Counted from the stretch's first letter, positions 18,325 through 54,088 are shown. The stretch: DNA of 64,000 nt from Dehalococcoidia bacterium (GCA_050248355.1 JBFWSN010000004.1:13530-77529), one strand, 5' to 3'. The notes: generated by a model from the letters alone, not told the origin. Made by a program: numbers and translations.

Positions 18325-18390
18325 CCGACGGACTTCCCGCGTCTCACCGGATCTGGCACACTCGCCCGCAATTGCCCTCGAGGAGTGCCT

Positions 18391-19488
18391 GTGCAGTGGG
18401 TCGTACTGATCGCGGTGGTGCTGCTCGCGGCTCTCACGGTGGTGGCGCTCCTCAACATTTACAACCTCATCCTCCAGAACGGTCGCCTGCTCATCCGACT
18501 CGACAACATGGAGGAGGCCCTGTTCCCGCCCCCGGGCCCCGAAGCCCTCGTCGAGGAGTATCTGGCCACGATGCCCCCGGGGCGCGAAGCGCCGCCCTTC
18601 GCGTTGCCCGACCTCAACGGTGTGGTCCGTCGCATCGACGAATGGCGCGGGCAGCGGGTCCTGCTGGTGTTCGTCGACCCTGAGTGCGCCTTCTCCCGGC
18701 GCCTTGTGCCCTGGCTGGTCGGCGCGACGCGCGATGTCGTGCCCGGCCGTCCCCTCCCCGTCATCGTGTCGACCGGAAGCGTCGAGGCCAACCGCGCCCT
18801 GTTCGATGAAGCCGGCTTTACCGGGGCGGTGCTTCTGCAACGCGACACCGAAATCGCCGCCGCCTACCGCGTCGATGGCACGCCGATGAGCTACCTGATC
18901 GAGGCGGATGGGGTCGTTGCCGCAGACGCCGCCATCGGAGTGCAGTCGATCCTGCTTCAGGCCGGCGAGATCGCCGTGGTCGAGGACGCGCTGCCGGGCG
19001 AGCCGGTCGGGCTCCGCGATGACGGATTCGGCGCCCGCCTCGATGCGCCCGCCGCGAGGCAGGACGGCCTCCGGCGCGGTGAGACCGCCCCGCTGTTTCG
19101 TCTCCCGGGTGTCAATGTGCAGGAGGTGTCGCTCCTCGACTTTCGGGGACGCCCCACGGTCGTCGTCTTCACGGACCCGGAGTGTGACGCCTGCGAGCAG
19201 GTTGGCCCCACCCTCGAGGCAGCCCATCGATCACACCCCGAACTGGGCATCGTTCTCGTGAGTCGGGGCGACCCGGTCCTCACGAGAGACCAGGTCGCTG
19301 CTCAGGGCCTGACGTTCCCTGTTGCGGTCCAGCGACACTGGGAAGTCTCGCGCCGCTATGGTATGTTCGCCGCGCCTGTCGCGTTCTTGCTCGACGAATG
19401 GGGCGTCGTGAGCTTGGACATGGCGGTGGGCGCGGCCGGTATCGCCCAGCTCTTGGAGGCGGGAGCTGACCCGGCCGTGAACAACTGA
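18391..19488 (+). CDS. Membrane-anchored protein with two tandem thioredoxin-fold (TlpA/redoxin-like) domains
   Basis: An N-terminal transmembrane helix is followed by two redoxin-like domains. The first has DPECAFS (single Cys); the second has a CxxC motif (DPECDACEQ). GAGGAG lies 7 nt upstream of the GTG at 18391. Confidence 0.7.
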   Translation: MQWVVLIAVVLLAALTVVALLNIYNLILQNGRLLIRLDNMEEALFPPPGPEALVEEYLATMPPGREAPPFALPDLNGVVRRIDEWRGQRVLLVFVDPECAFSRRLVPWLVGATRDVVPGRPLPVIVSTGSVEANRALFDEAGFTGAVLLQRDTEIAAAYRVDGTPMSYLIEADGVVAADAAIGVQSILLQAGEIAVVEDALPGEPVGLRDDGFGARLDAPAARQDGLRRGETAPLFRLPGVNVQEVSLLDFRGRPTVVVFTDPECDACEQVGPTLEAAHRSHPELGIVLVSRGDPVLTRDQVAAQGLTFPVAVQRHWEVSRRYGMFAAPVAFLLDEWGVVSLDMAVGAAGIAQLLEAGADPAVNN

Positions 19489-19535
19489 GAGCAGCGGGGC
19501 ACAGTGCCTCGCTCTCACGCGGAAGGGAGTGACCA

Positions 19536-19763
19536 ATGACTGGGCGCACACGGACGATGGGCAAGGCCCGCAGGAACGTACGCCGCGGGCGGACGCGTCT
19601 CATCGGTGCAGGCGTATTCGGCGTGGTCGCCGCTGCCCTGCCGACCTTCGCGAGTGCCACGGAGTTGTGGGGCCGCGAGAGCTCGCTGTGGTTCGTCAAC
19701 ATCAACGGGCAGAACTTCAACGTCATCCAGCCGCTCTGGCACCTGATCTGTCGCGGCAGCTAG
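19536..19763 (+). CDS. Small secreted peptide precursor, paralog 1 (Tat-like signal plus 34-aa Trp-rich core)
   Basis: RBS AAGGGAG. Leader …RRGRTRLIGAGVFGVVAAALPTFASA, then TELWGRESSLWFVNINGQNFNVIQPLWHLICRGS. Confidence 0.6.
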   Translation: MTGRTRTMGKARRNVRRGRTRLIGAGVFGVVAAALPTFASATELWGRESSLWFVNINGQNFNVIQPLWHLICRGS

Positions 19764-19905
19764 CAGCGCGCGTTCCAGCCCCTCACGAGGGGTGACATCG
19801 GGGCCCGCTGGCCCGGCGCCGCAGGCCCGGGCCGCGAGCAAAGAACAGCAGGGAGCAACGGGGCCGATGGTGCCTCGCGCTCATGCAGAAAGGGAGTTAC
19901 GAAGG

Positions 19906-20112
19906 ATGCAAATGGACAAGGCCCGTAAGCACGTACGCCGCGGGCGGACCCGCCTCGTCGGTGCGGGCGTATTCGGCGTTCTCGCCGCTGCACTGCCGAG
20001 CTTCGCGGGTGCCACGGAGTTGTGGGGTCGCGAAAGCTCGACGTGGTTCGTCCACATCAACGGGCAGGCCTTCAACGTGATCCAGGTGCTCTACCACCGC
20101 TGCGGCGGCTAG
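19906..20112 (+). CDS. Small secreted peptide precursor, paralog 2
   Basis: RBS AAAGGGAG. Leader MQMDKARKHVRRGRTRLVGAGVFGVLAAALPSFAGA, then TELWGRESSTWFVHINGQAFNVIQVLYHRCGG. The upstream region is also duplicated from paralog 1. Confidence 0.6.
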   Translation: MQMDKARKHVRRGRTRLVGAGVFGVLAAALPSFAGATELWGRESSTWFVHINGQAFNVIQVLYHRCGG

Positions 20113-20396
20113 CACGCGCGTCCCACCCCTTACGGTGGGCGAATCAGGGCTCGCGGTCCCGGCGAACCACGCCGGCTCCGCGGGCCTTGAGCTTCCTCGC
20201 TGACCGCGAGCAGCGGGTCGTGCTCGTCGACCCGGTTCCCTCGACTTCATTCACGCAACGGGTGCCCCCGCACGTGGCCCGCAGAACCGGACGTGGGTGC
20301 GCGCACGATTACGATCTTGTGCTATGTTCCTACCGCGTGATGGGTTCGGCAGCGGATCGCGTCGGCAGTCCGATACGAGTCACAGGAGGAGCAGAG

Positions 20397-20669
20397 GTGA
20401 CCGAGAAGTTCGACGACATGAGCAAGCACATGGCCCGCAAGCATTCCCGTCGGGGGCTGATCCGAGCCCTCGGGGCGGGCGTCCTCGGCGCCACCGCGGC
20501 AGCCGCGCTGCCGACCGTGGCGAGCGCGGACTGGGGTGCGTTCCGCCGAGGATCGTACCTCCGCAACACGTACGGTCCGCAGTGGTACACCGTGGACAAT
20601 GGGCAGAACCAGAACGTCATCGGGCAGATCCGGTGGAACCAGTCGCTGCCCAACCCCGGGGCCGACTAG
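20397..20669 (+). CDS. Small secreted peptide precursor, paralog 3
   Basis: RBS AGGAGG before the GTG. Leader …SRRGLIRALGAGVLGATAAAALPTVASA, then DWGAFRRGSYLRNTYGPQWYTVDNGQNQNVIGQIRWNQSLPNPGAD. Confidence 0.6.
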   Translation: MTEKFDDMSKHMARKHSRRGLIRALGAGVLGATAAAALPTVASADWGAFRRGSYLRNTYGPQWYTVDNGQNQNVIGQIRWNQSLPNPGAD

Positions 20670-20757
20670 CATCGTAGGGTGCTGAACCGCGGCCGTCGTC
20701 ATCGTCGGTAGCACGGGCGATCGTCGACGGATGTGTCAGCCTCAGTGAGGAGCGAAA

Positions 20758-21021
20758 GTGACCGAGAAGTTCGACGACATGAGCAAGCACATGGCCCGCA
20801 AGCACTCGCGTCGAGGGCTCATCCGCGCCCTCGGGGCGGGCGTCCTCGGCGCCACCGCGGCAGCCGTGCTGCCGACCGTCGCGAGCGCGGACTGGGGTGC
20901 GTTCCGCCGGGGATCGCAGCTCCGCGACACGTACGGTCCGCAGTGGTACACCGTGGACAATGGCCAGAATCAGAACGTCCTCGGACCGATCCGCTGGAAC
21001 CAGATGCGTACGGAACCGTAG
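20758..21021 (+). CDS. Small secreted peptide precursor, paralog 4
   Basis: Near-identical to paralog 3 (DWGAFRRGSQLRDTYGPQWYTVDNGQNQNVLGPIRWNQMRTEP) and carries the same leader. Confidence 0.6.
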   Translation: MTEKFDDMSKHMARKHSRRGLIRALGAGVLGATAAAVLPTVASADWGAFRRGSQLRDTYGPQWYTVDNGQNQNVLGPIRWNQMRTEP

Positions 21022-21088
21022 TTCGTCAGTGACCGACCAGGGCGGGCCCGAGACTGGCTTTCAGGGCCAGGGCGTCTCGGGCCCGCTC

Positions 21089-21877
21089 GTGTCCGTCGTC
21101 CTCACCACCCGCGATCGCCCTCATCTCTTGCCGATCGCGTTCCGCTGCTTCGAGCTCCAGAGCTACCCCAACCGCGAACTGATCGTCGTGGACGATGGTC
21201 TCGAATATCCAGCTGACGTCTCGTCACTCCCGGCCGACGCCGTCCGCGTCGTCCGCGTCCCGCCCGGAACCCCCCTCGGTGTCAAGCTGAACCACGGCGT
21301 CGATGCTGCCCGTGGCCGCCTCTGCATGAAGATGGACGACGACGACTGGTACGCCCCGGAGTACCTCGCGACATCCGTCGATGCACTCATCGAGAGCGAG
21401 CGCCGGTTCTGCCGTCCGACCCTCGTCTTCCACCTGGGCTTTCTGTTCTTCGAACTGAGGACGTGGCGCATCCACCTGTCCGTGCAGGACAACGCCCCCG
21501 GCGCGACGCTTCTCTTCGCGAAGAGCGACTGGCGCCGCCGCCCCTTCCGTCCGGTCCCCACCGACGAGGACGCCTGGTTCTACCGCGACCAGGTCCTCGC
21601 CGGCGCCCTGCCCCTCCCCATCGACTCGATCGACACGTTCGTCGCCATTCGCCATCGGGGCCATCGAGGGACGTTCGGCCACACGTGGACCTACCAGCTC
21701 GACGGCAGATCGCTGGAGGACTATCTCGCCAGGCGCCCCGTCTACACCCGCACCCCCGAGCAGATGTTCCCCGACTGGGCCCTGCGGACCTACCGCCGCA
21801 TCCACGAAGACCTCGTCGCCCAGGAGCGCGAGGAGGAGCCCGCGGCTCCGATCGATGCGACTCCGGCTCCCGCGTAG
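21089..21877 (+). CDS. Glycosyltransferase family 2 (GT-A fold)
   Basis: N-terminal VSVVLTTRDRPHLL, DxD motif (VVDDG) and acidic MDDDDWY are present. The start is taken as the GTG at 21089; the ORF is open further upstream but would then overlap peptide paralog 4. Confidence 0.65.
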   Translation: MSVVLTTRDRPHLLPIAFRCFELQSYPNRELIVVDDGLEYPADVSSLPADAVRVVRVPPGTPLGVKLNHGVDAARGRLCMKMDDDDWYAPEYLATSVDALIESERRFCRPTLVFHLGFLFFELRTWRIHLSVQDNAPGATLLFAKSDWRRRPFRPVPTDEDAWFYRDQVLAGALPLPIDSIDTFVAIRHRGHRGTFGHTWTYQLDGRSLEDYLARRPVYTRTPEQMFPDWALRTYRRIHEDLVAQEREEEPAAPIDATPAPA

Positions 21878-22649
21878 CCGGCGGCGCTACCCCGAGGAGA
21901 ACGCGCCGCCTCCGCCCCGAGTCCTCATCCTCACCCCGATGAAGGACGCGCGTCGCACGTTGCCCGTCTACTGGTCGCTCCTCCGACGCGTGACGTACCC
22001 GCGCGGCCGCATCTCGCTGGGCTTCCTCGAGAGCGACAGCTCAGACGGCACCTGGGACGAGGTGCAGGCCTGCCTTCCGGTGCTGCAGCGTGAGTTCCGG
22101 CGCGCCCTCGCCTGGAAGCGTGACTTCGGCTACCGCATCCCCCCCGGCCTCCCCCGCTGGGAGGACTCCATCCAGCTCGCCCGCCGCGCCGTCCTCGCGC
22201 GCAGCCGCAACCACCTCCTCTTCCATGCCCTCGACGACGAGGACTGGGTGCTCTGGATGGACGCCGACCTCCTCGACTACCCGCCGGACGTCATCGAGCG
22301 CCTACTCGCTGTCGGTCGCGACGTCGTCCAGCCCCACTGCGTTCTCCAGTACGGCGGGCCGACGTACGACCGGAACGCATGGGTCGATCAGGGACGCTCG
22401 CACATGGACCGTCTCCGCGATCACGACCTCGTGCGGCTCGACTCGGTCGGCGGCACCATGCTCCTCGTGAAGGCCGACCTCCACCGCGACGGGCTCATCT
22501 TCCCGCCCTTCCTCTACGGCCTCGACAACCCCCTCGTGCGACGCGGCCGAGGCGAGATCGAGACGGAGGGCCTCGGCTCGCTCGCCCACGACATGGGCAT
22601 CGAATGCTGGGGCCTCCCGAACCTGGAGGTCCTTCATCACCCCTTCTAG
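21855..22649 (+). CDS. Putative GT-A-like glycosyltransferase (Anp1/Mnn9-like domain?)
   Basis: VLILTPMKDA…ISLGFLESDSSDGT…LWMDADL gives a GT-A-like DxD/acidic pattern. The assignment is tentative. Confidence 0.45.
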   Translation: MRLRLPRSRRRYPEENAPPPPRVLILTPMKDARRTLPVYWSLLRRVTYPRGRISLGFLESDSSDGTWDEVQACLPVLQREFRRALAWKRDFGYRIPPGLPRWEDSIQLARRAVLARSRNHLLFHALDDEDWVLWMDADLLDYPPDVIERLLAVGRDVVQPHCVLQYGGPTYDRNAWVDQGRSHMDRLRDHDLVRLDSVGGTMLLVKADLHRDGLIFPPFLYGLDNPLVRRGRGEIETEGLGSLAHDMGIECWGLPNLEVLHHPF

Positions 22650-22677: not shown

Positions 22678-23871
22678 TTGTTCATCACCCCTGCATCCCC
22701 CGCGGCGGGGGGGAACGGCCTCGCGATGCGTGCCGGTATGTGGCTGGAGGCGCTCGCGCAGCGCTACGAGGTCGACCTGCTCGTCGTCCCGGTCTACGGT
22801 GCGGGTCGCCCGGACGCCGACGCGTTCGCGCGCCAGTACTGCCGCTCCGTTACCGTCGTGCCGCGCGAGGCGCTCACACGCGCCCTGGCTGCCGGGATGG
22901 CCGAAGCGGGCGGGCCGCTCGACGTCCTGCGCGCGTTCGAGGCGTCCATTCCCGCCTGCCTCGAGGCCGTGGACACCCTCGATCTCGACATCGACGTCAT
23001 CCACGCCTTTCGGCTCTACACCACCCCCGTCGCCCTCGCGCTCGCAGCGCGCGCCCCGCAAGCGCGCCTCCACGTCGATCTCGACGACATCGAGTCGGTC
23101 ACGCGCTCACGCATCGCTGCCATGCACCGCCTCAACGGCCGGCTCGACCCCGCTCGCGCAGAGGACGCCGAGGCGGGCCGCTTCGCCGAGGCCGAGCGCG
23201 ACCTGCTCCCTCGCTTCCAGCGCCTGTACGTCTGCTCCGACCTCGACGCCGCCCGCCTGCGCGAGCTGCTTCCCGGCCTCACTGCTGAGGTACGCGTCGT
23301 CCCGAACGCCGTCCGGCTTCCCGTGCCGCCCCCCTCCCCGCGCACGACGCACCCCTTCACGTTCCTCTTTGTCGGCACGATGGGCTACGCCCCTAACCTC
23401 GATGCCGTCCGTTGGTTCACGCGCCGCATCTGGCCGCGCGTCCACGCTCGCGCCGGTCGTCCGGTCCTGTTTCGCGTCGTCGGTCCCCCTCCCGAGACGG
23501 ACCTCTCAGCCGTCGCGCGCCTCCCCGGCGTCCGAGTGGCCGGTCCGGTGCCCGACGTAACTCCCGAGTACGGCGACGCTGACGCGGTGGTCGTCCCGCT
23601 GCGCGCCGGCGGCGGCACCCGCATCAAGGCACTCGAGGCGTTCGCGCACGGCCGCCCGGTCGTGAGCACCACTATCGGCGTCGAGGGCATCGAGGCGACT
23701 CCGGGCCGCGATCTCCTCGTCGCCGATGACCCCGATGCCTTCGCTGACGCCTGCCTCCGTCTCATCGACGACCCGGCGCTTGGCGCGGCCATCGCGACGA
23801 GCGCCGCGCGGCTCGTCACCTTGAGGTATTCACAGGACATCGTCGCCCCGCTCATCGGCGGACCGGCATGA
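22678..23871 (+). CDS. Glycosyltransferase family 4 (GT-B)
   Basis: The C-terminal region carries …PLRAGGGTRIKALEAFAHGRPVVST…. Confidence 0.75.
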   Translation: MFITPASPAAGGNGLAMRAGMWLEALAQRYEVDLLVVPVYGAGRPDADAFARQYCRSVTVVPREALTRALAAGMAEAGGPLDVLRAFEASIPACLEAVDTLDLDIDVIHAFRLYTTPVALALAARAPQARLHVDLDDIESVTRSRIAAMHRLNGRLDPARAEDAEAGRFAEAERDLLPRFQRLYVCSDLDAARLRELLPGLTAEVRVVPNAVRLPVPPPSPRTTHPFTFLFVGTMGYAPNLDAVRWFTRRIWPRVHARAGRPVLFRVVGPPPETDLSAVARLPGVRVAGPVPDVTPEYGDADAVVVPLRAGGGTRIKALEAFAHGRPVVSTTIGVEGIEATPGRDLLVADDPDAFADACLRLIDDPALGAAIATSAARLVTLRYSQDIVAPLIGGPA

Positions 23872-24996
23872 CCTCGCACTCCTCGATGATCGCGAGGAGC
23901 CGTCGCGCCGCGTGGTCCCATGTGAACCGCTCGACCATGCGCGCCCGCGCAGAGGCTGCCGGGGCGTCCTCGCCCGCAATCGCCCGCCGCACGTACTCGA
24001 CCGCCTGATCCTCGTCCGGCGCCCACCAGCGCGCGCCGTCGAACAGCTCCGCCGACCACGCGTCCGAGGTCGACACGGCGGCCACCTCGCGTGATTCGAT
24101 CATCGACGCGACCGAGTCGTCCAGGTAGTCGAGGTACGCGCTGTGCCGTGGGGCAATCAGCCGCAGCCCGGACGCCGCCGCCTGCGACATCGGCAGGTCC
24201 CACCCCTCCCCGAACGACAGGCTGATGTAGTGCGTGCCGGCGGCGAACAGCCGCGGCAGGTCGGCGTCCGGCAGCACCAGGTCGACGAACGCGACCGGCG
24301 CCGCCTCACGCAGTCGCTTCCCGACTGCGTCCTCCGCGTCGCGCACCGTCCGCCCGAAGTGCGCGAGCGCGCCGGTCATCGTCGTGCCGCGTTTCACGAC
24401 CAGCACCGCGTCGTCGTCGGCGCGCGTCGCCCGCAGCCAGACTCGCAGCAACCCCTCGAGGTTCTTGCGCCCACTGACCGCCGACACGTTGAGAAACCGC
24501 GTCGCATACGAGCCGATCGGCCGGTCGCTGGCGTCTGCGAGGTCGAGGGAGGGCACGCCTGGTCGGAACAGGTCCGTCCGCACGCCGAGCGGGCACAGCC
24601 GCAGCTTCTCCTCGGGCACGCCGCTATTGATCCACGCGCGACGTGAGTGCTCCGTCGGCAGCACGATGAGGTCCGCCCGCGAGTGCGCGCGCGCCCACGA
24701 TTCGGGGATGCGCGTCGCCTCGAACATCGTGTAGTTGAGGTGGGGCGTCCACGGCGCCGGCCGCACCTGCGTCGGAAACGCGATGTGGAGGTTCGCCCGC
24801 ACCGAGGCCGGACGCCGCAGGCGTTCGAACCACGGCTCTCGCAACTCGTACGGCAGCCCCGCCGGGCCCCACTCCCCGAGCTGTTCCAGCGCGACCTCGA
24901 TGCCCCGCCGGACGAGCGCGCGCGCAAGCTCACGCGTGTGGTAGTCGTACCCCGTCTGCCCGAGATACGGCCCGCGGATGCGCACCCCGGCTGCCA
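23852..24996 (-). CDS. Glycosyltransferase family 4 (GT-B), convergent with the previous gene
   Basis: Begins MAAGVRIRGPYLGQTGYDYHTRELARALVRRGIEV and carries …GEGWDLPMSQAAASGLRLIAP. The longer ORF continuing to 25489 is a shadow of the acdh gene. The start coordinate is uncertain by a few nt. Confidence 0.7.
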
Positions 24997-25126
24997 TCTG
25001 CCGAGTATCGTCGCCCGCGTCGTTCGAGGCCACGCGGCCTTCCGTGCGCTGCCCCCGGTGATACAGTACGTCCGCGCGTACGCACGTAATCGCTCGTGAC
25101 GCGACCACCGACGAGAGGACTTCGAC

Positions 25127-26618: not shown

Positions 26619-28415
26619 ATGTCCGCGGAAACCGAGCAACGGAACGCACACCTGGTCTTGGATCGCCGTCTCTTCTTGCGAGGCGGGTCGTTCGCCCTTG
26701 GAGGCATCGCCGCCGCGGCGCTGGTCGGCTGCGGGGGCGACGATGACGACACCGGTGCGCCTGCCGCTACCTCGACCGGAACAGCCACCACCGTCATTCC
26801 CAAGAACCAGAACCCGGCGCAGGTGAAGACGGACCCAAATCTGCCGTTCCCCCTTGGCATCGCTGAACCGGATCGGCCCGCGAAGGATGGCGGAACGCTG
26901 AACGTCGCCGTCAGCTGGGACGTCTCGACGATGGACCCGAGCAAGTCCGCCGCGGGTGGCACCATTACTGTGCCCAACGTTGGCTACGACCGGCTCATTG
27001 GCTTCGTCAGCGGCATTCATTACGACCCGTTGAAGCTCGAACTCAAGCCGGAGCTGGCGACCTCATGGGAACGAAGCCCTGACGGCCTCGTCTATACCTT
27101 CAAGATCCGCTCTGGCACGAAGTGGCAGAACCTCCCGCCCCTGAATGGCCGTGCCTTCGTCGCTGACGACGCCGCATTCGCGCTTGGTCGCTACAAGACC
27201 GAGGGCGTCCATCAATCCATTCACAGCGAGGTCGACCGATTCGAGGCTCCCGACCCCGCCACCCTCAAGATCACGATGAAGAAGCCGCTCGCGGACTACA
27301 TCAACAACCTCGGTGGGCGCTATCAGACGATCTTCCCGAAGGAGCTCGTGGACGATGGCTCTATCGACAGGACCGTCGTCGGCACCGGCCCGATGATCCT
27401 CCGCGAGGCGAAGGCACAGCAGCAGGTCACGTTCGAGAAGAACCCTGATTACTGGCAGGGAAAGATCCACCTCGATGGTCTGATCTTCAAGATCATGCCC
27501 GATAACACCGCACGCACGGCCGCGTTTCGTGCCGGTCAGATCGAGTACGCGTACGCACTTGCCGCCAAGCTCAGCGACGTGAAAAACATCCAGCGGACGA
27601 ACCCGGACGTTCAGGTGTTCATGGCCGGCGGCACCGCCGGCGGCTACGGCTTTGGGATGAACCTTCAGCATTCGAAGTTCCGTGACGAACGCGTACGACG
27701 CGCCATCTCCCTGTCCAACGACCACGAACAGACCGTGGCGCTGCTCTTCGAGAATTACGGCGTGGCCGCTCCCGACCAGCCCTGGTCATTCGTGCTCGAC
27801 CGTCTGCCGGACTACAAGACCGGCGACCAGGGGCAGTGGGTGCAGCCCAATGGCGACCCCACTCAGGCGAAGCAACTCCTCGACGCCGCCGGCGCAGCGA
27901 ACCTCACGATCAACGCCGTCTATTACACGTACGGTCAGTACGATGCTGACCGCCCGCAGGTCCTCACGGACCAGTTCCGCAAGTCCGGCATTACGCTCAA
28001 CGCCCGTCGCGTCGAGTACACCGAGTTCAACTCCCAGTGGGTGCCCGGGAAACTCGAAGAAGCGACGACAAGTGGTTGGTCCGCCGGCGGGTTCGACGCT
28101 GACAACTACTTCTACAATCAGATCTACTCGAAGTCGCCCGGCAACCGTCACCACCTCGAAGACCCACAGGTGGACCAGTGGGCCGATCAGCAGCGCACTG
28201 AACTTGATCCGGCGAAACGCAAGGAAATCCACAGAAAGATCTGGGACCGCATCTGGGTCGATCAGATGTATCGCATTCCGCAGGCGGGCTTCTACGGCTA
28301 CGAGGTCATGCAGCCCTGGCTGAGAGGATGGCGCGGCGCTGGCGGCCCGCTCGGCTCCAGCAGTTACTTCTACGACTGGGGCGAGCAACTCATCGACATC
28401 TGGCTCGACAAGTAG
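26619..28415 (+). CDS. ABC transporter substrate-binding protein, family 5 (peptide/nickel/opine type), Tat-lipoprotein
   Basis: The Tat/lipobox region LDRRLFLRGGSFALGGIAAAALVGCGG is followed by an SBP_bac_5-like body. Confidence 0.85.
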   Translation: MSAETEQRNAHLVLDRRLFLRGGSFALGGIAAAALVGCGGDDDDTGAPAATSTGTATTVIPKNQNPAQVKTDPNLPFPLGIAEPDRPAKDGGTLNVAVSWDVSTMDPSKSAAGGTITVPNVGYDRLIGFVSGIHYDPLKLELKPELATSWERSPDGLVYTFKIRSGTKWQNLPPLNGRAFVADDAAFALGRYKTEGVHQSIHSEVDRFEAPDPATLKITMKKPLADYINNLGGRYQTIFPKELVDDGSIDRTVVGTGPMILREAKAQQQVTFEKNPDYWQGKIHLDGLIFKIMPDNTARTAAFRAGQIEYAYALAAKLSDVKNIQRTNPDVQVFMAGGTAGGYGFGMNLQHSKFRDERVRRAISLSNDHEQTVALLFENYGVAAPDQPWSFVLDRLPDYKTGDQGQWVQPNGDPTQAKQLLDAAGAANLTINAVYYTYGQYDADRPQVLTDQFRKSGITLNARRVEYTEFNSQWVPGKLEEATTSGWSAGGFDADNYFYNQIYSKSPGNRHHLEDPQVDQWADQQRTELDPAKRKEIHRKIWDRIWVDQMYRIPQAGFYGYEVMQPWLRGWRGAGGPLGSSSYFYDWGEQLIDIWLDK

Positions 28416-30783: not shown

Positions 30784-32589
30784 ATGTCTGACTTCAACAT
30801 CGACCGCTTCCGCGAGTTCCGCCTCGGACGCCGGGCCGCGCTGCGAGGCGGCGCACTGGCCCTCGGTGGCGTCTCGCTTGCCGCCCTCGTGGGCTGCGGC
30901 GGCGACGAGGACGGCGGCGACGACCCCGTCCCCGGCGTCCGAGGTGAGACGACGGCCGTCGCGACGGTCGCGCCCGGCGTCGACCAGAACCCGGCTCAGC
31001 TCGTACAGCAGGAGGGGCTGCCGTACCCGTTCGGCTACCCCGAGCCATCGACGACGCCGAAGGACGGCGGCACCGCCACCGTCGCCGTGAGCTGGGACAT
31101 CTCCACGATGGACCCGACACGGTCCGCCGCCGGTGGCACGATCACCGTGCCCAATACCTCGTACGACCGCCTCATCGGCTTTGTGAGCGGCATCCACTAC
31201 CACCCCTTGAACCTCGAGCTGAAGCCCGAGCTGGCCGAGTCGTGGGAGCGCAGCCCGGACGGCCTCATGCTCACCTTCAAGCTGCGTCCCGGCGTCCAGT
31301 GGCACAACGTGGCTCCGCTCAACGGCCGCCCCTTCGTTGCCGAGGACGTCGTATCGGCCTACCGGCGCTACCAGTCGGAAGGCGTGCACCAGTCGATCTG
31401 GATCGAGGTCGACAACATCGAGGCGCCGGACGACGCCACCGTCCGCATCACGCTGAAGACGCCGCTCGCCGACTTCATCAACAACCTGGCCGGCCGTTAC
31501 CAGACCATCTTCCCCAGGGAGCTGGTCGACGACGGCTCGATTGAACGCACGGTCGTCGGCACCGGGCCGCTCATCTTCCGTGACGCACAGCAGACGCAGG
31601 CGGTGAACTTCGACCGCAACCCCGACTACTGGGGCGGCCCGATCCACGTCGACAGCTTCGTGTACCGCATCATCCCGGACCTCAACGCCCGCACGGCCGC
31701 GTTCCGCGCCGGCCAGGTCGAGTACGCCTATGCCATCGCCGGCCGCGCCAGTGAGGTCGAGGTGATTCGAGGCACGAACCCGGACGTGAACGTGCACATG
31801 ACCGGCGGCACCGCCGGCGGCTACGGCTTCGGCATGAACCTGCAGAACCCGAAGTTCGCGGACGAGCGCGTCCGCCGCGCCATCTCCCTGGCGAACGACC
31901 ATCGCACGACCATCGCGCTCCTCTACGAGAACTACGGCCTTGCCGCGCCGGACATGCCTTGGCCCTTCCTCTACCAGGACGCTCCAGACCTGCAGAGCGG
32001 CGTGCTCGGCGAATGGGTCAGGCCCTCCGGCGACCCCGAGCAGGCGCGCCAGCTCCTCGAGGCTGCCGGCGCTGGCGGCCTCACGATCAATGCCTCCTAC
32101 TACACGTACGGCCCCTACGACGCGACGCGTCCCGAGCTGCTGGCCGACCAGTTCCGGCGGGCGGGGATCACGCTCAACGCCCGCCGCGCGGACTACACCG
32201 AGTTCAACTCGCAGTGGGTGCCCGGCAACCTCGAGGAGGCCACCACCAGCGGCTGGGCAGCCCCCGGCTTCGACGCCGATAGCTACTTCTACAACCAGGT
32301 GCACTCCGCCTCGCCGGGGAACCGCCACAAGCTCCAGGACTCGCAGATCGACGCCTGGGCCGAACGGCAGCGCGTCCAGCTCGATCCCGCCGCGAGGGCC
32401 GAGCTCCAGCAACAGATCTGGGATCGCATCTGGCTCGACCAGATGTACCGCATCCCCCAGGCCGGCGGGTACTCCTACGAGATCCACCAGCCATGGTTCC
32501 GGGGCTTCCGCAGCGGCGGCCCGCTCGGCACCAGCAGCTACTTCTACGACTGGGGCGAGCAGATTCCGGACATTTGGCTGGACCGCTGA
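30784..32589 (+). CDS. ABC transporter substrate-binding protein, family 5 (paralog of 26619..28415), Tat-lipoprotein
   Basis: The LGRRAALRGGALALGGVSLAALVGCGG leader is present. The mature sequence is collinear with the first SBP at roughly 60-70% identity. Confidence 0.85.
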   Translation: MSDFNIDRFREFRLGRRAALRGGALALGGVSLAALVGCGGDEDGGDDPVPGVRGETTAVATVAPGVDQNPAQLVQQEGLPYPFGYPEPSTTPKDGGTATVAVSWDISTMDPTRSAAGGTITVPNTSYDRLIGFVSGIHYHPLNLELKPELAESWERSPDGLMLTFKLRPGVQWHNVAPLNGRPFVAEDVVSAYRRYQSEGVHQSIWIEVDNIEAPDDATVRITLKTPLADFINNLAGRYQTIFPRELVDDGSIERTVVGTGPLIFRDAQQTQAVNFDRNPDYWGGPIHVDSFVYRIIPDLNARTAAFRAGQVEYAYAIAGRASEVEVIRGTNPDVNVHMTGGTAGGYGFGMNLQNPKFADERVRRAISLANDHRTTIALLYENYGLAAPDMPWPFLYQDAPDLQSGVLGEWVRPSGDPEQARQLLEAAGAGGLTINASYYTYGPYDATRPELLADQFRRAGITLNARRADYTEFNSQWVPGNLEEATTSGWAAPGFDADSYFYNQVHSASPGNRHKLQDSQIDAWAERQRVQLDPAARAELQQQIWDRIWLDQMYRIPQAGGYSYEIHQPWFRGFRSGGPLGTSSYFYDWGEQIPDIWLDR

Positions 32590-32715: not shown

Positions 32716-33618
32716 CTACTCGCGTTCGCGCGCTGTGCGGGATGTCAAGCGCGCCGTCGGCTCAGGACCGTTGAGCAACTCCCAGGCCGATCGCAGGTCG
32801 TCGCCCGGCGGCGGCTTGGCGCGACGATCGGGTGTACGCAGCGTGAGTGCCCACGCCTCGAAGTCCGAGCGTGGATCGTGAAGCCCCTCGAGCGCGCGCA
32901 CGAGCGACATTAGCTCGGCATCCTCGACGGGGAGGATCATCGCGCCGGCGCCGGCCGCCGCGGCCAGAGCGACATACACCATGCGCAGCGGCCGGCGCCG
33001 CTCACGGGCGGCCCCATGCCCCAGATTGCCGACCGCCACGAGCGGCTCGATCCTCGCCGGCCCCGATTCCCGCAGCGCGGCCACCCACCGTAAGGAACGG
33101 CGACAGCGTTCGAGGTTCGTCGCTGGCGGATAGGTGAGGCAGTCGAGGTAGGCCGGGCCGGTCCCGTCAGAGCCAGCCATCATGTCCGCCGCCGTCTGCG
33201 CCGCCTCGAGAATCGCCCCGTCGTCGTCGCTTCGGTCGGCACGCCGAGGAGAGAACACCACGCCCGCCCCGGCGCTGGCCGACGCCTCGATCAACGCTGG
33301 GTCCGCCGCGGGGACGGGAATGGCGTTGACGACGATCGGCCCGTGGATCGAAGGCGCCGCCTCGACAAGTGCGTCGTGGTCACTGCAGTCGAGAAAGAGC
33401 GTCACCTCCGGCAGTACGGCCCGCAGCGCGCTCGCCGCCCACACGAGGTCTGCAACAAGCCCGGGACGCCCTATCGCCCCAAAGTTCACGTCGAGGGCCG
33501 CGGCACCTGCATCCACCTGCTTCCTGCCGCGCGCGACCAGCGGCGCCGCGTCGCGTCGGGCGACGGCATCCGCGAGTGGCGGGCGCCAGCACTCGATCGA
33601 CTGTCCGATGACGAGCAT
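32716..33618 (-). CDS. Pterin-binding / dihydropteroate-synthase-like domain protein (MtrH/AcsE-like methyltransferase fold), tentative
   Basis: MLVIGQSIE…LDVNFG…VVNAI motifs recall the pterin-binding TIM barrel. The longer ORF to 34035 is a shadow of the ABC exporter gene. Confidence 0.45.
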   Translation of the reverse strand: MLVIGQSIECWRPPLADAVARRDAAPLVARGRKQVDAGAAALDVNFGAIGRPGLVADLVWAASALRAVLPEVTLFLDCSDHDALVEAAPSIHGPIVVNAIPVPAADPALIEASASAGAGVVFSPRRADRSDDDGAILEAAQTAADMMAGSDGTGPAYLDCLTYPPATNLERCRRSLRWVAALRESGPARIEPLVAVGNLGHGAARERRRPLRMVYVALAAAAGAGAMILPVEDAELMSLVRALEGLHDPRSDFEAWALTLRTPDRRAKPPPGDDLRSAWELLNGPEPTARLTSRTARERE

Positions 33619-33699
33619 CCCGGCCCCCACATCCGTCGCCTGCGAAGCGTAGCATCGAGGTATGACCACACCTGTTCCGAGGGGTGCCCGCCCGTGACC

Positions 33700-35508
33700 A
33701 TGGGCCGCCCGATGCGCCACCAGCGCCCCCAGACCTCCTCGCGCGTTCTTGCGAGGCGCGCCGTCGGCCTCTTCCGCCCCTACCGCGCCGCCTTCGCGCT
33801 GCTCTTCACCCTCCTCGTCGCCAGCACCGCGCTCGACCTCATTGGCGTCCGCCTGCTTGGCGCGATGGTCGACGAGATGACGGCAGACGGCGACCGAAGC
33901 GTCCTCAACCGTCTGCTCGCAATCTTCGTGGTCCTCGTGCTCACCTCGGCCTTGCTCGGCGTCGGCCAGTCCTACGTGAACCAGGTCATCGGCCAGGGCG
34001 TCATGCTCCGCCTGCGCACCGCGCTGCACGACCACCTACAGCGCCTCTCCCTCCGCTTCTACACGCAGACCCGCACCGGCGAGATCCTTTCGAGGATCTC
34101 CACCGACGTGAACGCCGTGCAGCAGGCCGTCACCGGCACCTTCACCGAGTTTCTGCAGAACGTCCTCACGCTCGCCATCGCCTTCGGCATCATGTTCACG
34201 ATCGAGTGGCGGCTCGCCCTCGCGACGCTCCTTGTGCTGCCGCTCTGGGTCTACCCGACGATGCGCGTCGGCCGCCACATGCGAGACCTCATGCGCGCCT
34301 GGCACCAGGAAACCGCCTCGATGTCCTCGCACCTCGAGGAGACGCTGTCCGTCTCCGGCTCCATGGTCGTCCGCTCCTTTGGCCGCGAGTCCCTCGAACG
34401 CGACCGCTTCGAGGCGTCCAACCAGGAGCTCTACCGCCTCTCGATCCGGCGCATGATGGCCGGCCGCTGGTTCAACATGGGCACCGGCCTCTTTGGCGCC
34501 CTCATTCCCGGCCTCGTCTACTGGTATGGCGGGCGGGCCGTCATCGGCCAGTCGCTCTCGCCCGGCGACGTGGTCGCCTTCGCAATGCTGGTGCAGCGCG
34601 TCTTCGGCCCCTTCGCCTCCATCGCCCGCATCAACACCACGCTGCTCTCCTCACTCGCCGTCTTCGAGCGCATCTTCGAGTACCTCGACATGCCCGTGGA
34701 GGTCGAGGAACGCCTCGGCGCCCGCCGCCTCGAGCGCGTCCGCGGCGCCATCGAGTTCGACCATGTCTCCTTCGGCTACGCCGGCCCTGACCGCCTCGCC
34801 CTAAACCATGTCACCTTCGAGGCGGCCCCCGGCACGATGGTCGCGCTCGTCGGCCCCTCGGGCGCCGGCAAGACGACGATGACCTACCTCCTCCAGCGCT
34901 TCTACGACCCGCTCGCCGGCGCAGTCCGCATCGACGGTCACGACCTGCGCGACCTCACGCTCGACTCCATCAGCGACGCCGTCGGCGCCGTCATGCAGAG
35001 CACGCACCTGTTCCACGCATCGCTCGCCGATAACATTCGCTACGGGCGCCTCGCCGCCACCGACGCCGAGGTGCGCGCCGCCGCGGCCGCCGCCGGCCTC
35101 GACGAGATGATCGCCCGCCTCCCCGAGGGCCTCGACACCCTCGTCGGCGAGCGCGGCTATCGCCTCTCCGGCGGCGAGCAGCAGCGCGTCGCCATCGCCC
35201 GCGCCGTGCTGAAGGACGCCCCCATCCTCGTCCTCGACGAGGCTACCGCCTCCCTCGACTCCCGACTCGAGCGCGAGATCCGCGAGGCCACCGCCCGCCT
35301 CTCCGAGGGCCGCACCACCGTCGTCATCGCCCACCGCCTCTCCACCGTCGTCGCAGCCGACCTCATCCTCGTCTTTGACCACGGCCGCGTGGTCGAGCGC
35401 GGCCGCCACGAGGACCTGCTCCGCCACGAAGGCCTCTACGCCCTCCTCTACCGTGAGCAGTTCCGTGAGGGGGCTCACGCGGATGACGCCCGCGTCTCGC
35501 TCGCGTGA
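33700..35508 (+). CDS. ABC exporter, fused transmembrane domain and ATPase (MsbA/multidrug-type)
   Basis: Six transmembrane helices are followed by Walker A GPSGAGKTT, signature LSGGEQQRVAIARA and Walker B ILVLDEATASLD. Confidence 0.85.
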   Translation: MGRPMRHQRPQTSSRVLARRAVGLFRPYRAAFALLFTLLVASTALDLIGVRLLGAMVDEMTADGDRSVLNRLLAIFVVLVLTSALLGVGQSYVNQVIGQGVMLRLRTALHDHLQRLSLRFYTQTRTGEILSRISTDVNAVQQAVTGTFTEFLQNVLTLAIAFGIMFTIEWRLALATLLVLPLWVYPTMRVGRHMRDLMRAWHQETASMSSHLEETLSVSGSMVVRSFGRESLERDRFEASNQELYRLSIRRMMAGRWFNMGTGLFGALIPGLVYWYGGRAVIGQSLSPGDVVAFAMLVQRVFGPFASIARINTTLLSSLAVFERIFEYLDMPVEVEERLGARRLERVRGAIEFDHVSFGYAGPDRLALNHVTFEAAPGTMVALVGPSGAGKTTMTYLLQRFYDPLAGAVRIDGHDLRDLTLDSISDAVGAVMQSTHLFHASLADNIRYGRLAATDAEVRAAAAAAGLDEMIARLPEGLDTLVGERGYRLSGGEQQRVAIARAVLKDAPILVLDEATASLDSRLEREIREATARLSEGRTTVVIAHRLSTVVAADLILVFDHGRVVERGRHEDLLRHEGLYALLYREQFREGAHADDARVSLA

Positions 35509-37347: not shown

Positions 37348-37526
37348 CATCCGCTCGTCGCAGTTGGAGCGTATCACCGCCTCCTCGCGCCACCGGCCCG
37401 AAGTCCGCGTGTCTCTGTAACCGCGCTGCGAGGTGAGGTGCTCCCTCGTAACCGTCCCGGATGGTGTCCATCACTAGCGTGGATGACAGGCATAGGACAC
37501 AGGACGTGTCAGAAGGGCGGCCAACG

Positions 37527-50862: not shown

Positions 50863-51005
50863 CACCTTCGCGTCCCCGATCACCGCCACCGTCCGAGGAT
50901 GCACCATCCACTCGAGGTCATACCCCACCGCCATCGCACCCCTCCATCCCACCCACGACGCCACGCCACCCGCGCGGATGATACGTCTCCGCCCCATCAC
51001 AATCG
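50863..51005. repeat. Direct repeat copy B. It contains a decayed copy of the CoA-binding gene start (MAVGYDLEWMVHPRTVAVIGDAKV) and borders the low-GC island.
   Basis: See copy A. The 62-aa ORF 50812..51000 is this duplicated pseudo-5' end. Confidence 0.7.
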
Positions 51006-51030
51006 CGTGGAGAGGCCGAGGTTCGGATCG

Positions 51031-52773: not shown

Positions 52774-53042
52774 GGTGACGTACGTGCCAACAGTCCGTCT
52801 GTCAGGATGACGGAGCCGATGATAAAGAGGAAGTCGAGGGCCAGGATAAACCAGTCATAACTGATTCGCCGGGTGGCATCTTCCCCCATTCGGAGACGGG
52901 TGTCCTCCCACAACCGAGAAACGGTCTTAGGAACGTCAAGGTGGGACAGCAGTTCTCCACCCACGAAGATCAGCGATCGATTCGCCGGGAGATGTTTAGT
53001 TGGCAGCAACACCGCTTGCCGCCTCGGACTCGAATATGTCAC
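52770..53042 (-). CDS. Small ORF (90 aa from a GTG start, or shorter) with a C-terminal hydrophobic helix; candidate middle component. Translationally coupled to the ATPase.
   Basis: Its TGA overlaps the ATPase ATG (ATGA at 52770-52773). Its 5' end overlaps the 3' end of the upstream 309-aa gene. No motif match. Confidence 0.3.
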   Translation of the reverse strand: MTYSSPRRQAVLLPTKHLPANRSLIFVGGELLSHLDVPKTVSRLWEDTRLRMGEDATRRISYDWFILALDFLFIIGSVILTDGLLARTSP

Positions 53043-53925: not shown

Positions 53926-54088
53926 ATCTCGCCGATCAATCGCGGAGACAGCCTAACAGAATACAATTGGAGTAGGTAGGCACCAATCGGCTCGGAGGTC
54001 GGGCGTTCGGCACATCGGGCGTTGGCGAGCAGTGCGCAGCGTGAGGCCACCCGCGCGCGCTATGCAGGCCGCTGAGGGTGTAAGGGGT

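Follow-up and report, generated by a model that had tools for sequence, protein, structure and literature searches.

Among the described systems closest to the locus analysed here are the glycocins, whose gene clusters combine a ribosomal peptide with a GT2 glycosyltransferase (GT) and a thioredoxin-type oxidoreductase, and which are defined by a double-glycine-type leader that is cleaved by an in-cluster C39-peptidase ABC transporter (PCAT) (PMC12457901). A second point of comparison is provided by thiol-redox systems, including MauD, which has a role in disulfide formation (bioRxiv 10.64898/2026.03.05.709764). The MauD/MauA system, which matures the small subunit of methylamine dehydrogenase, and the ResA/CcmG/StoA systems resemble the present locus in pairing a TM-anchored CxxC thioredoxin with a small Cys-rich client that bears a long RR-type leader. 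Glycosylation is represented by the cytoplasmic HMW1C/NGT-type (GT41) systems, in which soluble nucleotide-sugar GTs modify Asn before export and other soluble GTs extend the product, and by the yeast mannan polymerase proteins Mnn9/Anp1 (GT62), which extend N-linked glycans. Finally, the functional-amyloid chaplins of Streptomyces are small secreted multi-paralogue peptides with a short beta-hairpin-like motif that is superficially like the peptide cores described below.

The window examined in the current study is the whole 64,000-nt stretch of a Dehalococcoidia bacterium (GCA_050248355.1 JBFWSN010000004.1:13530-77529), with positions counted from its first letter (Table 1). A sequence-only reading of this DNA had described four tandem paralogous, leader-bearing small genes, each with its own RBS, that form two near-duplicate pairs with duplicated upstream DNA and a single Cys in one pair, placed between a membrane-anchored double thioredoxin with a CxxC in its second domain and four GTs directly downstream. 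This anatomy was confirmed, apart from the strand of one GT. All four small genes lie on the + strand, each preceded by a GGAG-type Shine-Dalgarno sequence; the tandem duplicates cover 257 nt at 92% identity and 187 nt at 87% identity, and a third duplicated block of 24 nt, located upstream, contains the RBS. The lone Cys of pep1 and of pep2 lies near the C-terminal end, and pep3 and pep4 have none. The upstream protein (hereafter the redoxin) has a single N-terminal TM segment (residues 1-31) and two AhpC/TSA domains with the active sites CAFS (monothiol) in domain 1 and CDAC in domain 2; its alternative start at 18391 agrees with the annotation of the related locus L001. Three of the four GTs follow on the + strand as described, but the fourth is convergent.

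Table 1. Features of the redoxin, peptide and glycosyltransferase cassette in the window
Feature	Position	Strand	Description
Membrane-tethered double-thioredoxin (ResA/MauD-like) redoxin	18385..19488	+	367 aa; Pfam AhpC-TSA twice, plus Redoxin
pep1	19536..19763	+	75 aa; RRG leader ending …FASA; 34-aa core TELWGRESSLWFVNINGQNFNVIQPLWHLICRGS, one Cys
pep2	19906..20112	+	68 aa; pep1 paralogue (87% nt identity); core end …VLYHRCGG
Conserved stable RNA stem-loop	20144..20190	+	between the pep1/2 and pep3/4 pairs
pep3	20397..20669	+	90 aa, GTG start; leader MTEKFDDMSKHMARKHSRRGLIRALGAGVLGATAAAALPTVASA; 46-aa Cys-free core DWGAFRRGSYLRNTYGPQWYTVDNGQNQNVIGQIRWNQSLPNPGAD
pep4	20758..21021	+	87 aa, GTG start; pep3 paralogue (92% nt identity)
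Soluble GT2, DDDD (DxD) motif	21029..21877	+	282 aa; Pfam Glycos_transf_2 1e-11
Soluble Anp1/Mnn9-like (GT62-type) GT	21855..22649	+	264 aa; Pfam Anp1 6.2e-48
Soluble GT4	22678..23871	+	397 aa, TTG start; Pfam Glyco_trans_1_4 1.6e-27
Convergent GT4-like	23852..24997	-	381 aa; Glyco_transf_4, GT4-conflict weak in Pfam

The genes pep1 to pep4 are genuine. Spurious ORFs are abundant in high-GC genomes, and such small ORFs might be non-coding or annotation artefacts in a GC-rich spacer; missing conservation or codon bias had been named in advance as grounds for doubt. Both conservation and bias were found: GC3 of the pep genes is 0.84-0.90 (0.87 in pep1) versus 0.49-0.57 at codon position 2, and dN/dS is 0.13-0.49 among the paralogues and against their L001 orthologues (0.34 for pep1 and 0.13 for pep3 against L001). 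There are 17 homologues, kept in independent assemblies, all in or near Dehalococcoidia MAGs and with the same arrangement of the array. Together with the RBSs, this coding-type evidence refutes the spacer-artefact explanation, to which we give practically no credence. A leader HMM matches pep1 (E=1.4e-13) and pep3 (8e-24), as well as pep2 and pep4. In the databases, pep1 is identical to P0012, a hypothetical protein from a Dehalococcoidia MAG, pep3 is identical in sequence to P0001, and pep2 is annotated by NCBI as a 66-aa form (P0016) starting at 19912. Between the two pairs, the region 20113-20210 folds with an MFE of -58.8 kcal/mol (z=-5.5; 0/200 shuffles equally stable), and the stem sequence is almost unchanged in L001. 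This stem-loop, for which neither a T-run nor a terminator call was obtained, may serve in transcript processing, attenuation or stabilisation.

The cassette order is double thioredoxin, one to four leader peptides, GT2, Mnn9/Anp1-like GT, GT4 and GT4-like GT. This cassette is undescribed and occurs in soil Chloroflexota and Acidobacteriota; a search of other genomes, as the sequence-only reading had proposed, recovered it in Dehalococcoidia and at least one acidobacterium, with differing flanks. Identical gene order with unrelated flanks was seen in L001, L009, L011, L013 and JGI 3300048101, and conservation between loci is restricted to the cassette genes. Among the 80 metagenome loci retrieved by redoxin anchor, one of which is assignable to Acidobacteriota, a leader ORF adjoins the redoxin in 56, and a cassette GT follows the peptide within 3.5 kb in 22 of the 25 non-duplicate redoxin-anchored loci that have at least 1.5 kb of downstream sequence. 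Overall, the redoxin gene is conserved immediately 5' of leader peptides in approximately 90 loci. The GT complement varies: in L033 it is enlarged by a GT25, a GT10 fucosyltransferase and methyltransferases, while L047, L077 and L084 have the redoxin and leader peptide and lack GTs, which indicates that the redoxin-peptide pair can stand alone. No protease, ABC exporter, flippase or oligosaccharyltransferase (OST) is conserved with the cassette across loci. L009 and JGI 3300048101 have, approximately 4 kb upstream, a PMT_2 (GT-C) gene that is absent from the other loci. Near the window cassette no OST, flippase or initiating transferase was found; the multi-TM ORFs examined in the window were ABC, MFS, EamA and AI-2E transporters, and the sole ABC exporter (33343-35508) lies 12 kb away and has no C39 domain.

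The leaders are conserved and the cores hypervariable. When 1.84e9 proteins were searched with a profile, all hits were small proteins that share positions 1-46 and carry unrelated cores, and these positions are common to approximately 90 such peptides. The leader consensus is M-x-E-K-F-D-E-x-S-K-x-L-A-x-K-H-S-R-R-G…A-x-A, with RRG unvaried in 18/18 family members. With RiPP loci in general the cassette shares a conserved leader, a hypervariable core and neighbouring genes for putative modifying enzymes (GTs, redoxin). The earlier proposal of a Tat-type leader held for the RR motif and AxA, as seen in HSRRGLIRALGAGVLGATAAA..VASA (S/T-R-R-x-F-L-K-like, with a weakly hydrophobic h-region), and for the window peptides the Tat assignment is made by motif alone; the curated model TIGR01409 (cut-off 16.7 bits) gave 11.7 bits for pep3, 12.5 for pep4 and no match for pep1 and pep2. 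These scores below the cut-off weaken the Tat assignment, which the relative P0034 supports with 17.7, above the cut-off; the relative P0043 scores 14.3. P0041 carries a window-type core after a non-RR signal. Similar RR signals occur on three other window proteins, a Mo-oxidoreductase and two SBP lipoproteins, and in L084 the identical leader type is found on two secreted-type proteins of ordinary size, which favours a specialised export signal over a RiPP leader only. In Acidobacteriota, which are diderm, Tat export reaches only as far as the periplasm, which counts against a secreted toxin in those hosts.

The leader and whole cassette are far more widely spread than the window-type cores. 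The proposed Trp-rich NGQN core is real insofar as W-[FY]-x-x-[VID]-N-G-Q-x-x-N is unvaried across 18 family members, but it is not a general feature of the wider family. As had been suspected, the mature cores match no family in Pfam or NCBIfam, and the four peptides have zero Pfam matches at E≤1. Most cores of the relatives are Cys-rich and some are N-x-T repeats; in many distant relatives the core has a CxxxC…Cx6C pattern compatible with a helical hairpin stapled by disulfides, whose loop could bear the sugar. Many Dehalococcoidia cores are rich in N-x-S/T, with repeats spaced by Pro. In the protein set, N-x-S/T was observed 77 times versus 27.9 expected; in locus-derived cores it was observed 45 times versus 25±4.2 expected, and hydrophobic-N-G 39 times versus 5.0±2.3 expected. 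A single Asn column is unvaried across aligned window-type, sequon-type and Cys-rich cores. Two positions after the conserved Asn, the residue is frequently not S/T but Q, I, L, V or G, in the window peptides as well. Since N-x-S/T occurs once in pep3 and not at all in pep1, pep2 and pep4, the sequon argument derives from relatives. The window peptides belong to an atypical Cys-poor, sequon-poor branch, and what is general to the family is the conserved leader with a hydrophobic-Asn-Gly/Ser element. AlphaFold predicts a beta-hairpin at YTVD-NG-QNQN with low confidence (pLDDT 50); Asn-Gly is a classic type I' beta-turn, and its conservation may therefore be purely structural.

The redoxin falls within the MauD/ResA superfamily as a member of neither family: against NCBIfam it matches ResA (NF002854; 1.3e-22, 80.5 bits versus a cut-off of 170) and MauD (TIGR02661; 3.8e-14, 52.6 bits versus 188.6), both under cut-off, and the leaders show a weak NCBIfam match to the MauA leader. 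It differs from both types in having two tandem thioredoxin domains; PDB matches to ResA and StoA span both halves. In contrast to the Mau system, the cassette has no MauE, DsbB or VKOR partner and its clients are not TTQ enzymes. The predicted orientation also differs from that of ResA/CcmG: K/R residues number 0 before the TM segment in 18/20 sequences and 2-4 after it in 20/20, from which the domains are predicted to face the cytoplasm. The domain 2 CxxC is unvaried across loci. Domain 1 co-varies with how much Cys the cores contain: it is CxxS in 5/5 Cys-poor loci and CxxC in 29/33 Cys-rich loci, among them L013 from the same clade (Fisher p=2.5e-4, a value that takes no account of phylogeny). 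All five Cys-poor loci may go back to one evolutionary event.

All four GTs lack TM segments. The GT2, a candidate for the peptide-priming enzyme, starts 8 nt past the pep4 stop, and its orthologues in other loci (1e-72 to 1e-171) typically start 20-160 nt past the peptide. A profile of 22 cassette GT2s searched against all PDB sequences matched only heparosan and chondroitin synthases (GT-A halves), PglI, GalT1 and SpsA; SunS and ThuS, whose structures are deposited in the PDB, were absent from the matches at E≤1e-3. This resemblance to polysaccharide and lipid-linked-glycan GT2s rather than to SunS/ThuS counts against glycosylation of the peptides, and no GT2 is known to glycosylate peptides at Asn. 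By sequence, the second GT is clearly homologous to Mnn9/Anp1 (PF03452, 164 bits versus a cut-off of 28.8; PDB Mnn9 3zf8, E=3.9e-20) with a DxD motif, but it is soluble and bacterial, whereas the yeast proteins have a type II membrane anchor; its L033 counterpart scores 178.6 bits against the Anp1 family, and it is fused with the GT2 in L042, L044, L048, L049, L067 and L078. The GT4, conserved within the cassette, matches the NCBIfam stp1-like family at 1.2e-46, under cut-off. The convergent GT4-like gene is the best-conserved cassette member (orthologues 1e-113 to 1e-174); its profile matches the PDB GT-B enzymes 2r60 and 7qsg, and in L022 and L030 it is either a neighbour of the GT2 or joined to it in one protein.

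The favoured interpretation, to which we give a probability of roughly 0.5, is that the peptides are exported by a Tat-type route and glycosylated by the adjacent cytoplasmic GTs, a system glycocin-like in logic. There are several other potential explanations. Two modules could simply travel together, a redoxin with client peptides (MauD/MauA-like) and a four-GT envelope-polysaccharide or glycolipid operon, leaving the peptides unglycosylated. The GT-free redoxin and leader loci, the polysaccharide-synthase- and PglI-like GT2 profile, the exopolysaccharide-type stp1 affinity of the GT4, the lack of sequons in the window cores and the fact that redoxin/core-Cys co-variation needs no GTs are all in line with this. 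However, in almost every locus of the two phyla, and despite rearrangements, the GT2 stays within 20-160 nt of the stop codon of the peptide gene, a priming phosphoglycosyltransferase, a flippase, a polymerase and an exporter are all missing from the cassette, and hydrophobic-Asn-Gly and N-x-S/T are strongly over-represented in the cores; moreover, the Cys-free, sequon-repeat cores of P0042-P0044 and P0033 have no obvious redoxin need, yet the whole cassette is kept. We consider this explanation unlikely, though credible. It is also conceivable that the soluble GTs build, at the cytoplasmic side of the membrane, a lipid-linked oligosaccharide that is flipped and moved en bloc to N-x-S/T after export, the OST being encoded elsewhere. 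The Pro-spaced sequon repeats, the match to PglI, an enzyme working on a lipid-linked N-glycan, and the upstream PMT_2 genes of L009 and JGI 3300048101 would fit, but the lack of a conserved or nearby OST, flippase or initiating transferase, the frequent non-S/T residue at +2 and the restriction of PMT_2 to those two loci make it quite improbable.

The small, secreted peptides in tandem paralogous arrays, with their low-confidence predicted hairpin, could alternatively be unmodified chaplin-like surface or structural peptides, the N/Q-rich NG hairpin driving assembly and the paralogues co-assembling; by eye, VNINGQNFNVIQPL is like VNVCGNTVSVIGLL, which we take to be a chaplin segment. Chaplins, however, have Sec signals, a conserved Cys pair, Actinomycetota hosts and no linked GTs or redoxin, homology is not detectable (zero Pfam Chaplin matches, even at E≤1), the hairpin is one among many core types behind the common leader and cassette, and the linked GTs and redoxin would go unexplained, so that little probability attaches to this view. 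Membership in a bona fide glycocin cluster of the sublancin or glycocin F type has even less. Like the glycocins (sublancin SunA/SunS/BdbA/BdbB/SunT, glycocin F and thermoglycocin), the cassette places a precursor beside a GT2 and a thiol-disulfide oxidoreductase, here the double AhpC/TSA-thioredoxin protein with its CxxC, and the CxxxC…Cx6C relatives and the terminal Cys of pep1 and pep2 are reminiscent of them. In contrast, the cassette has a twin-arginine AxA leader of signal-peptide type and no C39-ABC transporter, four GTs including a Mnn9-like one rather than a single SunS-like GT, and Asn as candidate acceptor instead of Ser, Thr or Cys; glycocins have two nested disulfides (at least four Cys) in a helix-loop-helix, whereas the window cores have 0-1 Cys; and the cassette is found in Chloroflexota and Acidobacteriota rather than in Bacillota. 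Leader and transporter, GT2 and Cys content alike disfavour glycocin membership.

The recurrent cassette and the redoxin/core-Cys co-variation favour the original suggestion of secreted, possibly redox-processed or glycosylated peptides. For the glycopeptide interpretation, we infer glycosylation from gene linkage and motif statistics, and propose that the 44-aa leader, with its amphipathic n-region (EKFDxxSKxxA), twin-arginine SRRGxΦ[RK], Gly/Ala-rich h-region and A-x-A, would act as a Tat-type export signal cleaved by general signal peptidase, the cassette itself encoding neither a dedicated exporter nor a protease. While the peptide is still in the cytoplasm, the four soluble GTs would assemble a short glycan on the core, probably primed by the GT2. 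Among potential acceptors, the conserved Asn of the hydrophobic-Asn-Gly/Ser/x-Thr element is the strongest candidate; in the window peptides this residue would occupy the tip of the beta-hairpin predicted for WΦxxΦ-NG-QNxNΦ. This proposed logic is like that of HMW1C/NGT, but those enzymes belong to GT41 and use a strict N-x-S/T context, while the putative cassette primer is a GT2 whose substrates would be 30-90-aa peptides with Tat-like leaders and a hydrophobic-N-G/S/x-T context. In Cys-rich relatives, the redoxin would make or shuffle the core disulfides, and in the Cys-poor lineage its first active site has degenerated to CxxS. The pathway would yield exported glycopeptides of 32-46 residues, which, speculatively, could serve as antimicrobials, signals or envelope components.

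The sequence-only reading placed four small leader-peptide genes (pep1-pep4), each with its own ribosome-binding site and together forming two near-duplicate pairs, between a membrane-anchored double-thioredoxin protein (the redoxin) and four glycosyltransferases (GTs). This description stands in its genes, ribosome-binding sites, duplicate pairs and redoxin anatomy; the strand of the fourth GT, which is convergent and encoded on the minus strand, had to be revised. All four small genes are preceded by a GGAG-type ribosome-binding site, in a genome of approximately 70% GC, and the array is made up of two tandem duplications of 257 nt (92% identity) and 187 nt (87%), with a 24-nt upstream block, ribosome-binding site included, likewise duplicated. 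The pep1-pep4 frames are coding genes: the codon bias proposed as a check on them is of the coding type (GC3 of 0.84-0.90 versus 0.49-0.57 at codon position 2), and dN/dS falls in the range 0.13-0.49, whether paralogues are compared with one another or with their orthologues in another genome. A leader HMM run on the 64-kb window matched the four known peptides and nothing else, and a scan of 18.0-25.6 kb for promoter and terminator consensus sequences found none. The 285-nt spacer between the two gene pairs (20113-20396) is 85% identical to that of L001, the locus in a second Dehalococcoidia genome. It contains a very stable hairpin at approximately 20144-20190 (-58.8 kcal/mol, z=-5.5) and, about 90 nt 5' of pep3, a conserved, more AT-rich block (CACGATCTTGTG.TAT.TTCC); the spacer might serve for processing or attenuation and also hold an internal promoter.

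Coordinates of the cassette genes and of two conflict-system genes in the window
Feature	Position	Strand	Description
Redoxin gene	18385-19488	+	367 aa; one N-terminal TM segment, two AhpC/TSA-thioredoxin domains
pep1	19536-19763	+	75 aa
pep2	19906-20112	+	68 aa; annotated form 66 aa
pep3	20397-20669	+	90 aa; GTG start
pep4	20758-21021	+	87 aa; GTG start
GT2	21029-21877	+	
Anp1-like GT	21855-22649	+	
GT4	22678-23871	+	
GT4-like gene	23852-24997	-	convergent
DUF2326+CTD10 (ABC-3C)	51031-52773	-	
CTD10 (ABC-3C)	52996-53925	-	

Elsewhere in the window, a low-GC island (51000-54163; 0.56-0.61 versus approximately 0.70) that adjoins a tRNA-Met gene (54089-54163, minus strand) encodes two ABC-three-component (ABC-3C) conflict-system proteins and is probably an integrated defence island. 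An ordinary but conspicuous NAD-specific glutamate dehydrogenase of the large bacterial type (1598 aa, with all ACT and helical domains) is found at 42200-46996.

Three of the peptides, pep1, pep2 (as annotated, 66 aa) and pep3, have exact counterparts in the "hypothetical proteins" AB7I38_06885, AB7I38_06890 and AB7I38_06895, which sit on a Dehalococcoidia MAG contig of 350 kb. Word-indexed searches returned only 17 homologues, and only four full-length members emerged when 1.84 billion representatives were scanned in full with an HMM, indicating that the family with the NGQN core is very narrow. NGQN-core relatives again form tandem arrays at the related loci L003, L004 and L007, and the L001 version of the locus encodes three peptides; the L001 genome was the only one, among the matches listed, in a genome-contig search with the peptide alignment, the second pattern of which (AG[VMA][LF]G..AAA) proved promiscuous. 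Two profile-search hits, P0019 (1860 aa) and P0020 (404 aa, SLLWYTTAVAQAFSIIQ repeats), were set aside as low-complexity or off-frame artefacts. The core motif had initially not been recognised as any described family, and this agrees with Pfam and NCBIfam, which recognised no mature core in the four peptides or in eight relatives and gave only weak leader matches (Tat, MauA-leader and formate_TAT).

The leader is the conserved part of the family. The same HMM scan yielded approximately 25 further small proteins (57-141 aa) whose match is confined to profile positions 1-46 (consensus M-x-E-K-F-D-E-F-S-K-H-L-A-x-K-H-S-R-R-G-x-F-K-L-F-G-A-G…A-x-A) and whose mature parts are unrelated. Leaders contain an SRRGxΦ[RK] motif, an h-region rich in Gly and Ala and an AxA site; the window peptides fall short of the curated Tat cut-off, which the relative P0034 passes. 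At L084 (740-3699), a locus with the FDELAK…RRG leader, two ordinary-sized proteins, one Cys-free and TolB/PD40-like by eye (about 358 aa) and one BNR/sialidase-like by eye (about 510 aa), bear this leader along with one small Cys-rich peptide; therefore, the leader is not restricted to small peptides. In the metagenome protein P0041 (57 aa, no locus), a Lys-type signal that lacks the RR motif precedes a window-type core (GQFTPSEGSWYTTVNGQNFNVFTLWRR), so a window-type core can pair with a different export signal. Taking the signals of P0041, the L084 proteins and other window proteins together, the leader is best read, from sequence, as a specialised export signal, and its unusually conserved n-region may also be recognised by cassette proteins. 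Two family-5 solute-binding lipoproteins and a sulfite-oxidase-like molybdoenzyme in the window (26619-28415, 30784-32589 and 37461-38858) have RR-type signals (…RR.(F/A)LRGG…LVGCGG on both lipoproteins and LSRRRL on the molybdoenzyme), which indicates heavy use of Tat in this organism.

Among loci with enough DNA available, the gene order of redoxin, peptide(s), GT2, Anp1-like GT, usually GT4, and then a convergent GT4-like gene is shared by L009 + L010 (another Dehalococcoidia MAG), L011 + L012, L013-L015, L008 and JGI 3300048101, while the genes flanking the cassette vary. A metagenome scan anchored on the redoxin alone gave 108 relatives, from which 80 loci on JGI metagenome contigs were kept; their redoxins are 33-50% identical to that of the window, and 56 of the 80 have a small ORF with a leader HMM match beside the redoxin. 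The GT2 and Anp1-like GT are fused in six loci (L042, L044, L048, L049, L067 and L078), a GT4-like enzyme is fused or adjacent to GT2 in L022 and L030, and the order is rearranged in some loci, with the GT4-like gene directly after the peptide. The expanded cassette of L033 (12894-20771) contains a 795-aa HEAT-repeat protein, a GT25, a GT10 fucosyltransferase and two methyltransferases among the core GTs, insertions that suggest lineage-specific glycan elaboration. Among the redoxin-anchored peptides, SPF34292.1 comes from Candidatus Sulfopaludibacter sp. SbA4 (Acidobacteriota), where it is labelled an "exported hypothetical protein"; the cassette thus spans at least two phyla. The named cassette members are all annotated as hypothetical, and full-text literature searches found no description of the cassette. 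A nearby FMN-dependent dehydrogenase, a CoA-transferase and an acyl-CoA dehydrogenase were dismissed as partners because they are not conserved beside the cassette elsewhere.

The mature cores are diverse. In the leader-profile protein set, Asn makes up 10% of core residues and N-x-S/T occurs 77 times versus 27.9 expected from shuffling; many cores consist of Pro-spaced [FIL]-N-x-[TS]-x-P repeats (e.g., P0042-P0044 and P0033), and others are Cys-rich (e.g., P0024, P0030 and P0037). In the wider family Cys-rich cores are the majority; one example, ICVDLCRAQGLTGSDFGKCVSASAHCPPGECALCINGDDCVCVPV, is at times duplicated. The 62 unique cores contain 39 hydrophobic-Asn-Gly motifs compared to 5.0±2.3 in shuffles and 45 N-x-S/T compared to 25±4.2, and among the other cores Φ-N-S or Φ-N-T is present in most. 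A sub-family (P0057-P0062, L045 and L080) with the leader MGKQFDDLAKALARGESRRQALRKF has short, knottin-like cores (CKPxGxxCxxxSQCCSGxC…[LT]N[ST]G…C), with a redoxin-GT2 context in at least L045 and L080. The window sequences WFVNI-NG-QNFNVIQP and WYTVD-NG-QNQNVIG align on the Asn of the hydrophobic-Asn-Gly motif and look like the C-terminal ALCI-NG-DDCVCVPV hairpin of Cys-rich cores minus the Cys-stapled part; the window peptides are thus a derived, Cys-poor and sequon-poor branch. An AlphaFold model of pep4 from an 18-sequence alignment (pLDDT ~50) suggests only a leader helix and a beta-hairpin at 64-73, with strands 64-67 and 70-73 flanking the NG.

The second redoxin domain has an invariant CxxC (CDAC in the window). 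The first is CxxS at every one of the five Cys-poor loci, namely L001, L003, L009, L011 and the window (where it reads CAFS), and CxxC in 29 of 33 Cys-rich loci; Fisher's test gives p = 2.5e-4, uncorrected for phylogeny. Among those with CxxC is L013, which has an 8-Cys core yet belongs to the same Dehalococcoidia-type clade. The co-variation supports the idea of a redoxin acting on core cysteines, with that role partly relaxed in the window. In the redoxin N-termini examined (e.g., window 18385-18520 and the metagenome loci L016-L095), the protein starts almost directly with the TM helix, with no Lys or Arg ahead of it in 18 of 20 sequences, and a near-invariant R-QNGR[IL]L-x-R-[LI]-E-x-L-E segment with 2-4 Lys/Arg follows. 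By the positive-inside rule, this bias predicts an N-out, C-in orientation with the thioredoxin domains facing the cytoplasm, a prediction that depends on start-codon choice. Such domains would differ from those of ResA and CcmG and be unusual among ResA/MauD-like proteins. The redoxin-client pair also recalls MauD/MauA.

Of the GTs, the second is a clear Anp1/Mnn9 homologue (Pfam 164 bits; 3zf8 at 3.9e-20). The GT2 profile gave generic GT-A matches (heparosan and chondroitin synthases, PglI and GalT1), and the GT4-like profile gave only distant GT-B enzymes. Since none of the four has a TM segment, any peptide glycosylation by them would have to precede export. The most economical model, put at about even odds (roughly 0.5), is a self-contained glycosylation-folding-Tat-type-export cassette, rated among ribosomal glycopeptide or protein-glycosylation cassettes. 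The four soluble GTs would glycosylate the leader-bearing peptides, with the Asn of the Φ-N-G/S/x-T element as candidate acceptor, and the redoxin would fold the core oxidatively where Cys is present; the peptide would then leave by a Tat-type route and the leader be trimmed by general signal peptidase.

There are several alternatives to this model. The redoxin-peptide module and a polysaccharide module could be independent, which is considered unlikely: at L084 all three leader genes lie 5' of a redoxin and GTs are absent, but of the 25 non-duplicate loci that extend at least 1.5 kb past the peptide, 22 have a cassette GT at most 3.5 kb away, and GT2 typically begins 20-160 nt beyond the stop codon of the peptide gene. 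A lipid-linked glycan with an unlinked oligosaccharyltransferase is an improbable explanation. All-against-all clustering of the loci found only the cassette genes to be conserved, and no protease, ABC exporter, flippase, priming transferase or oligosaccharyltransferase conserved with them; a pair of related Dehalococcoidia loci (L009 4289-5968 and JGI 3300048101) have genes for a PMT_2 (GT-C) glycosyltransferase, an EutA-like protein and a methyltransferase immediately 5' of the cassette, and the window, L001 and L011 lack these genes. Unmodified, self-assembling peptides are decidedly improbable, and a chaplin identity was rejected in view of no profile match of any sort. In its logic the cassette comes closest, among known systems, to the glycocin cluster, which comprises a precursor, a GT2, thioredoxins and a PCAT (PMC12457901). 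However, the glycocin features tested (leader and PCAT, SunS-like GT, nested disulfides) were not found at the window locus, no glycocin-type GT was among the GT2 profile matches, and the cassette, on the preferred model, would differ in its export route (Tat-type leader and general signal peptidase), its multi-enzyme glycan and possibly its Asn linkage; a true glycocin is very improbable. The finding itself is real, reproducible across genomes and more general than could be seen from the window alone, and the chance of an artefact is negligible.

A stronger version of the preferred cassette model, a truly new class of N-linked, cytoplasm-matured, Tat-exported ribosomal glycopeptides, is quite unlikely. 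The core would be matured wholly on the cytoplasmic side, with a dedicated GT2 placing a sugar on Asn, the Mnn9-like and GT4 enzymes lengthening the glycan, and, in Cys-rich members, the membrane-tethered, cytoplasm-facing thioredoxin folding the core oxidatively, before the folded, glycosylated peptide is exported through Tat by its family-specific leader. If true, this would be, to our knowledge, the first N-linked glycopeptide natural-product family in nature, and a natural case of glycosylation followed by Tat export. One published system, PMC7174548, was considered as an earlier example of proteins glycosylated in the cytoplasm and exported by Tat, and was set aside because PglB was used there.

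The cassette is small and self-contained and is therefore directly testable by heterologous expression. If the cassette model is true, it would provide a GT2 newly shown to glycosylate peptides, bacterial relatives of yeast Mnn9/Anp1 mannan polymerase whose peptide substrate is defined, and a two-domain membrane-tethered oxidoreductase of a new type, and the natural display of hypervariable cores behind one leader would be attractive for glyco-engineering. It would also mean that a compact six-gene exported-glycopeptide cassette is widespread in uncultured Dehalococcoidia and soil Acidobacteriota, so far unannotated, with every member called a "hypothetical protein".
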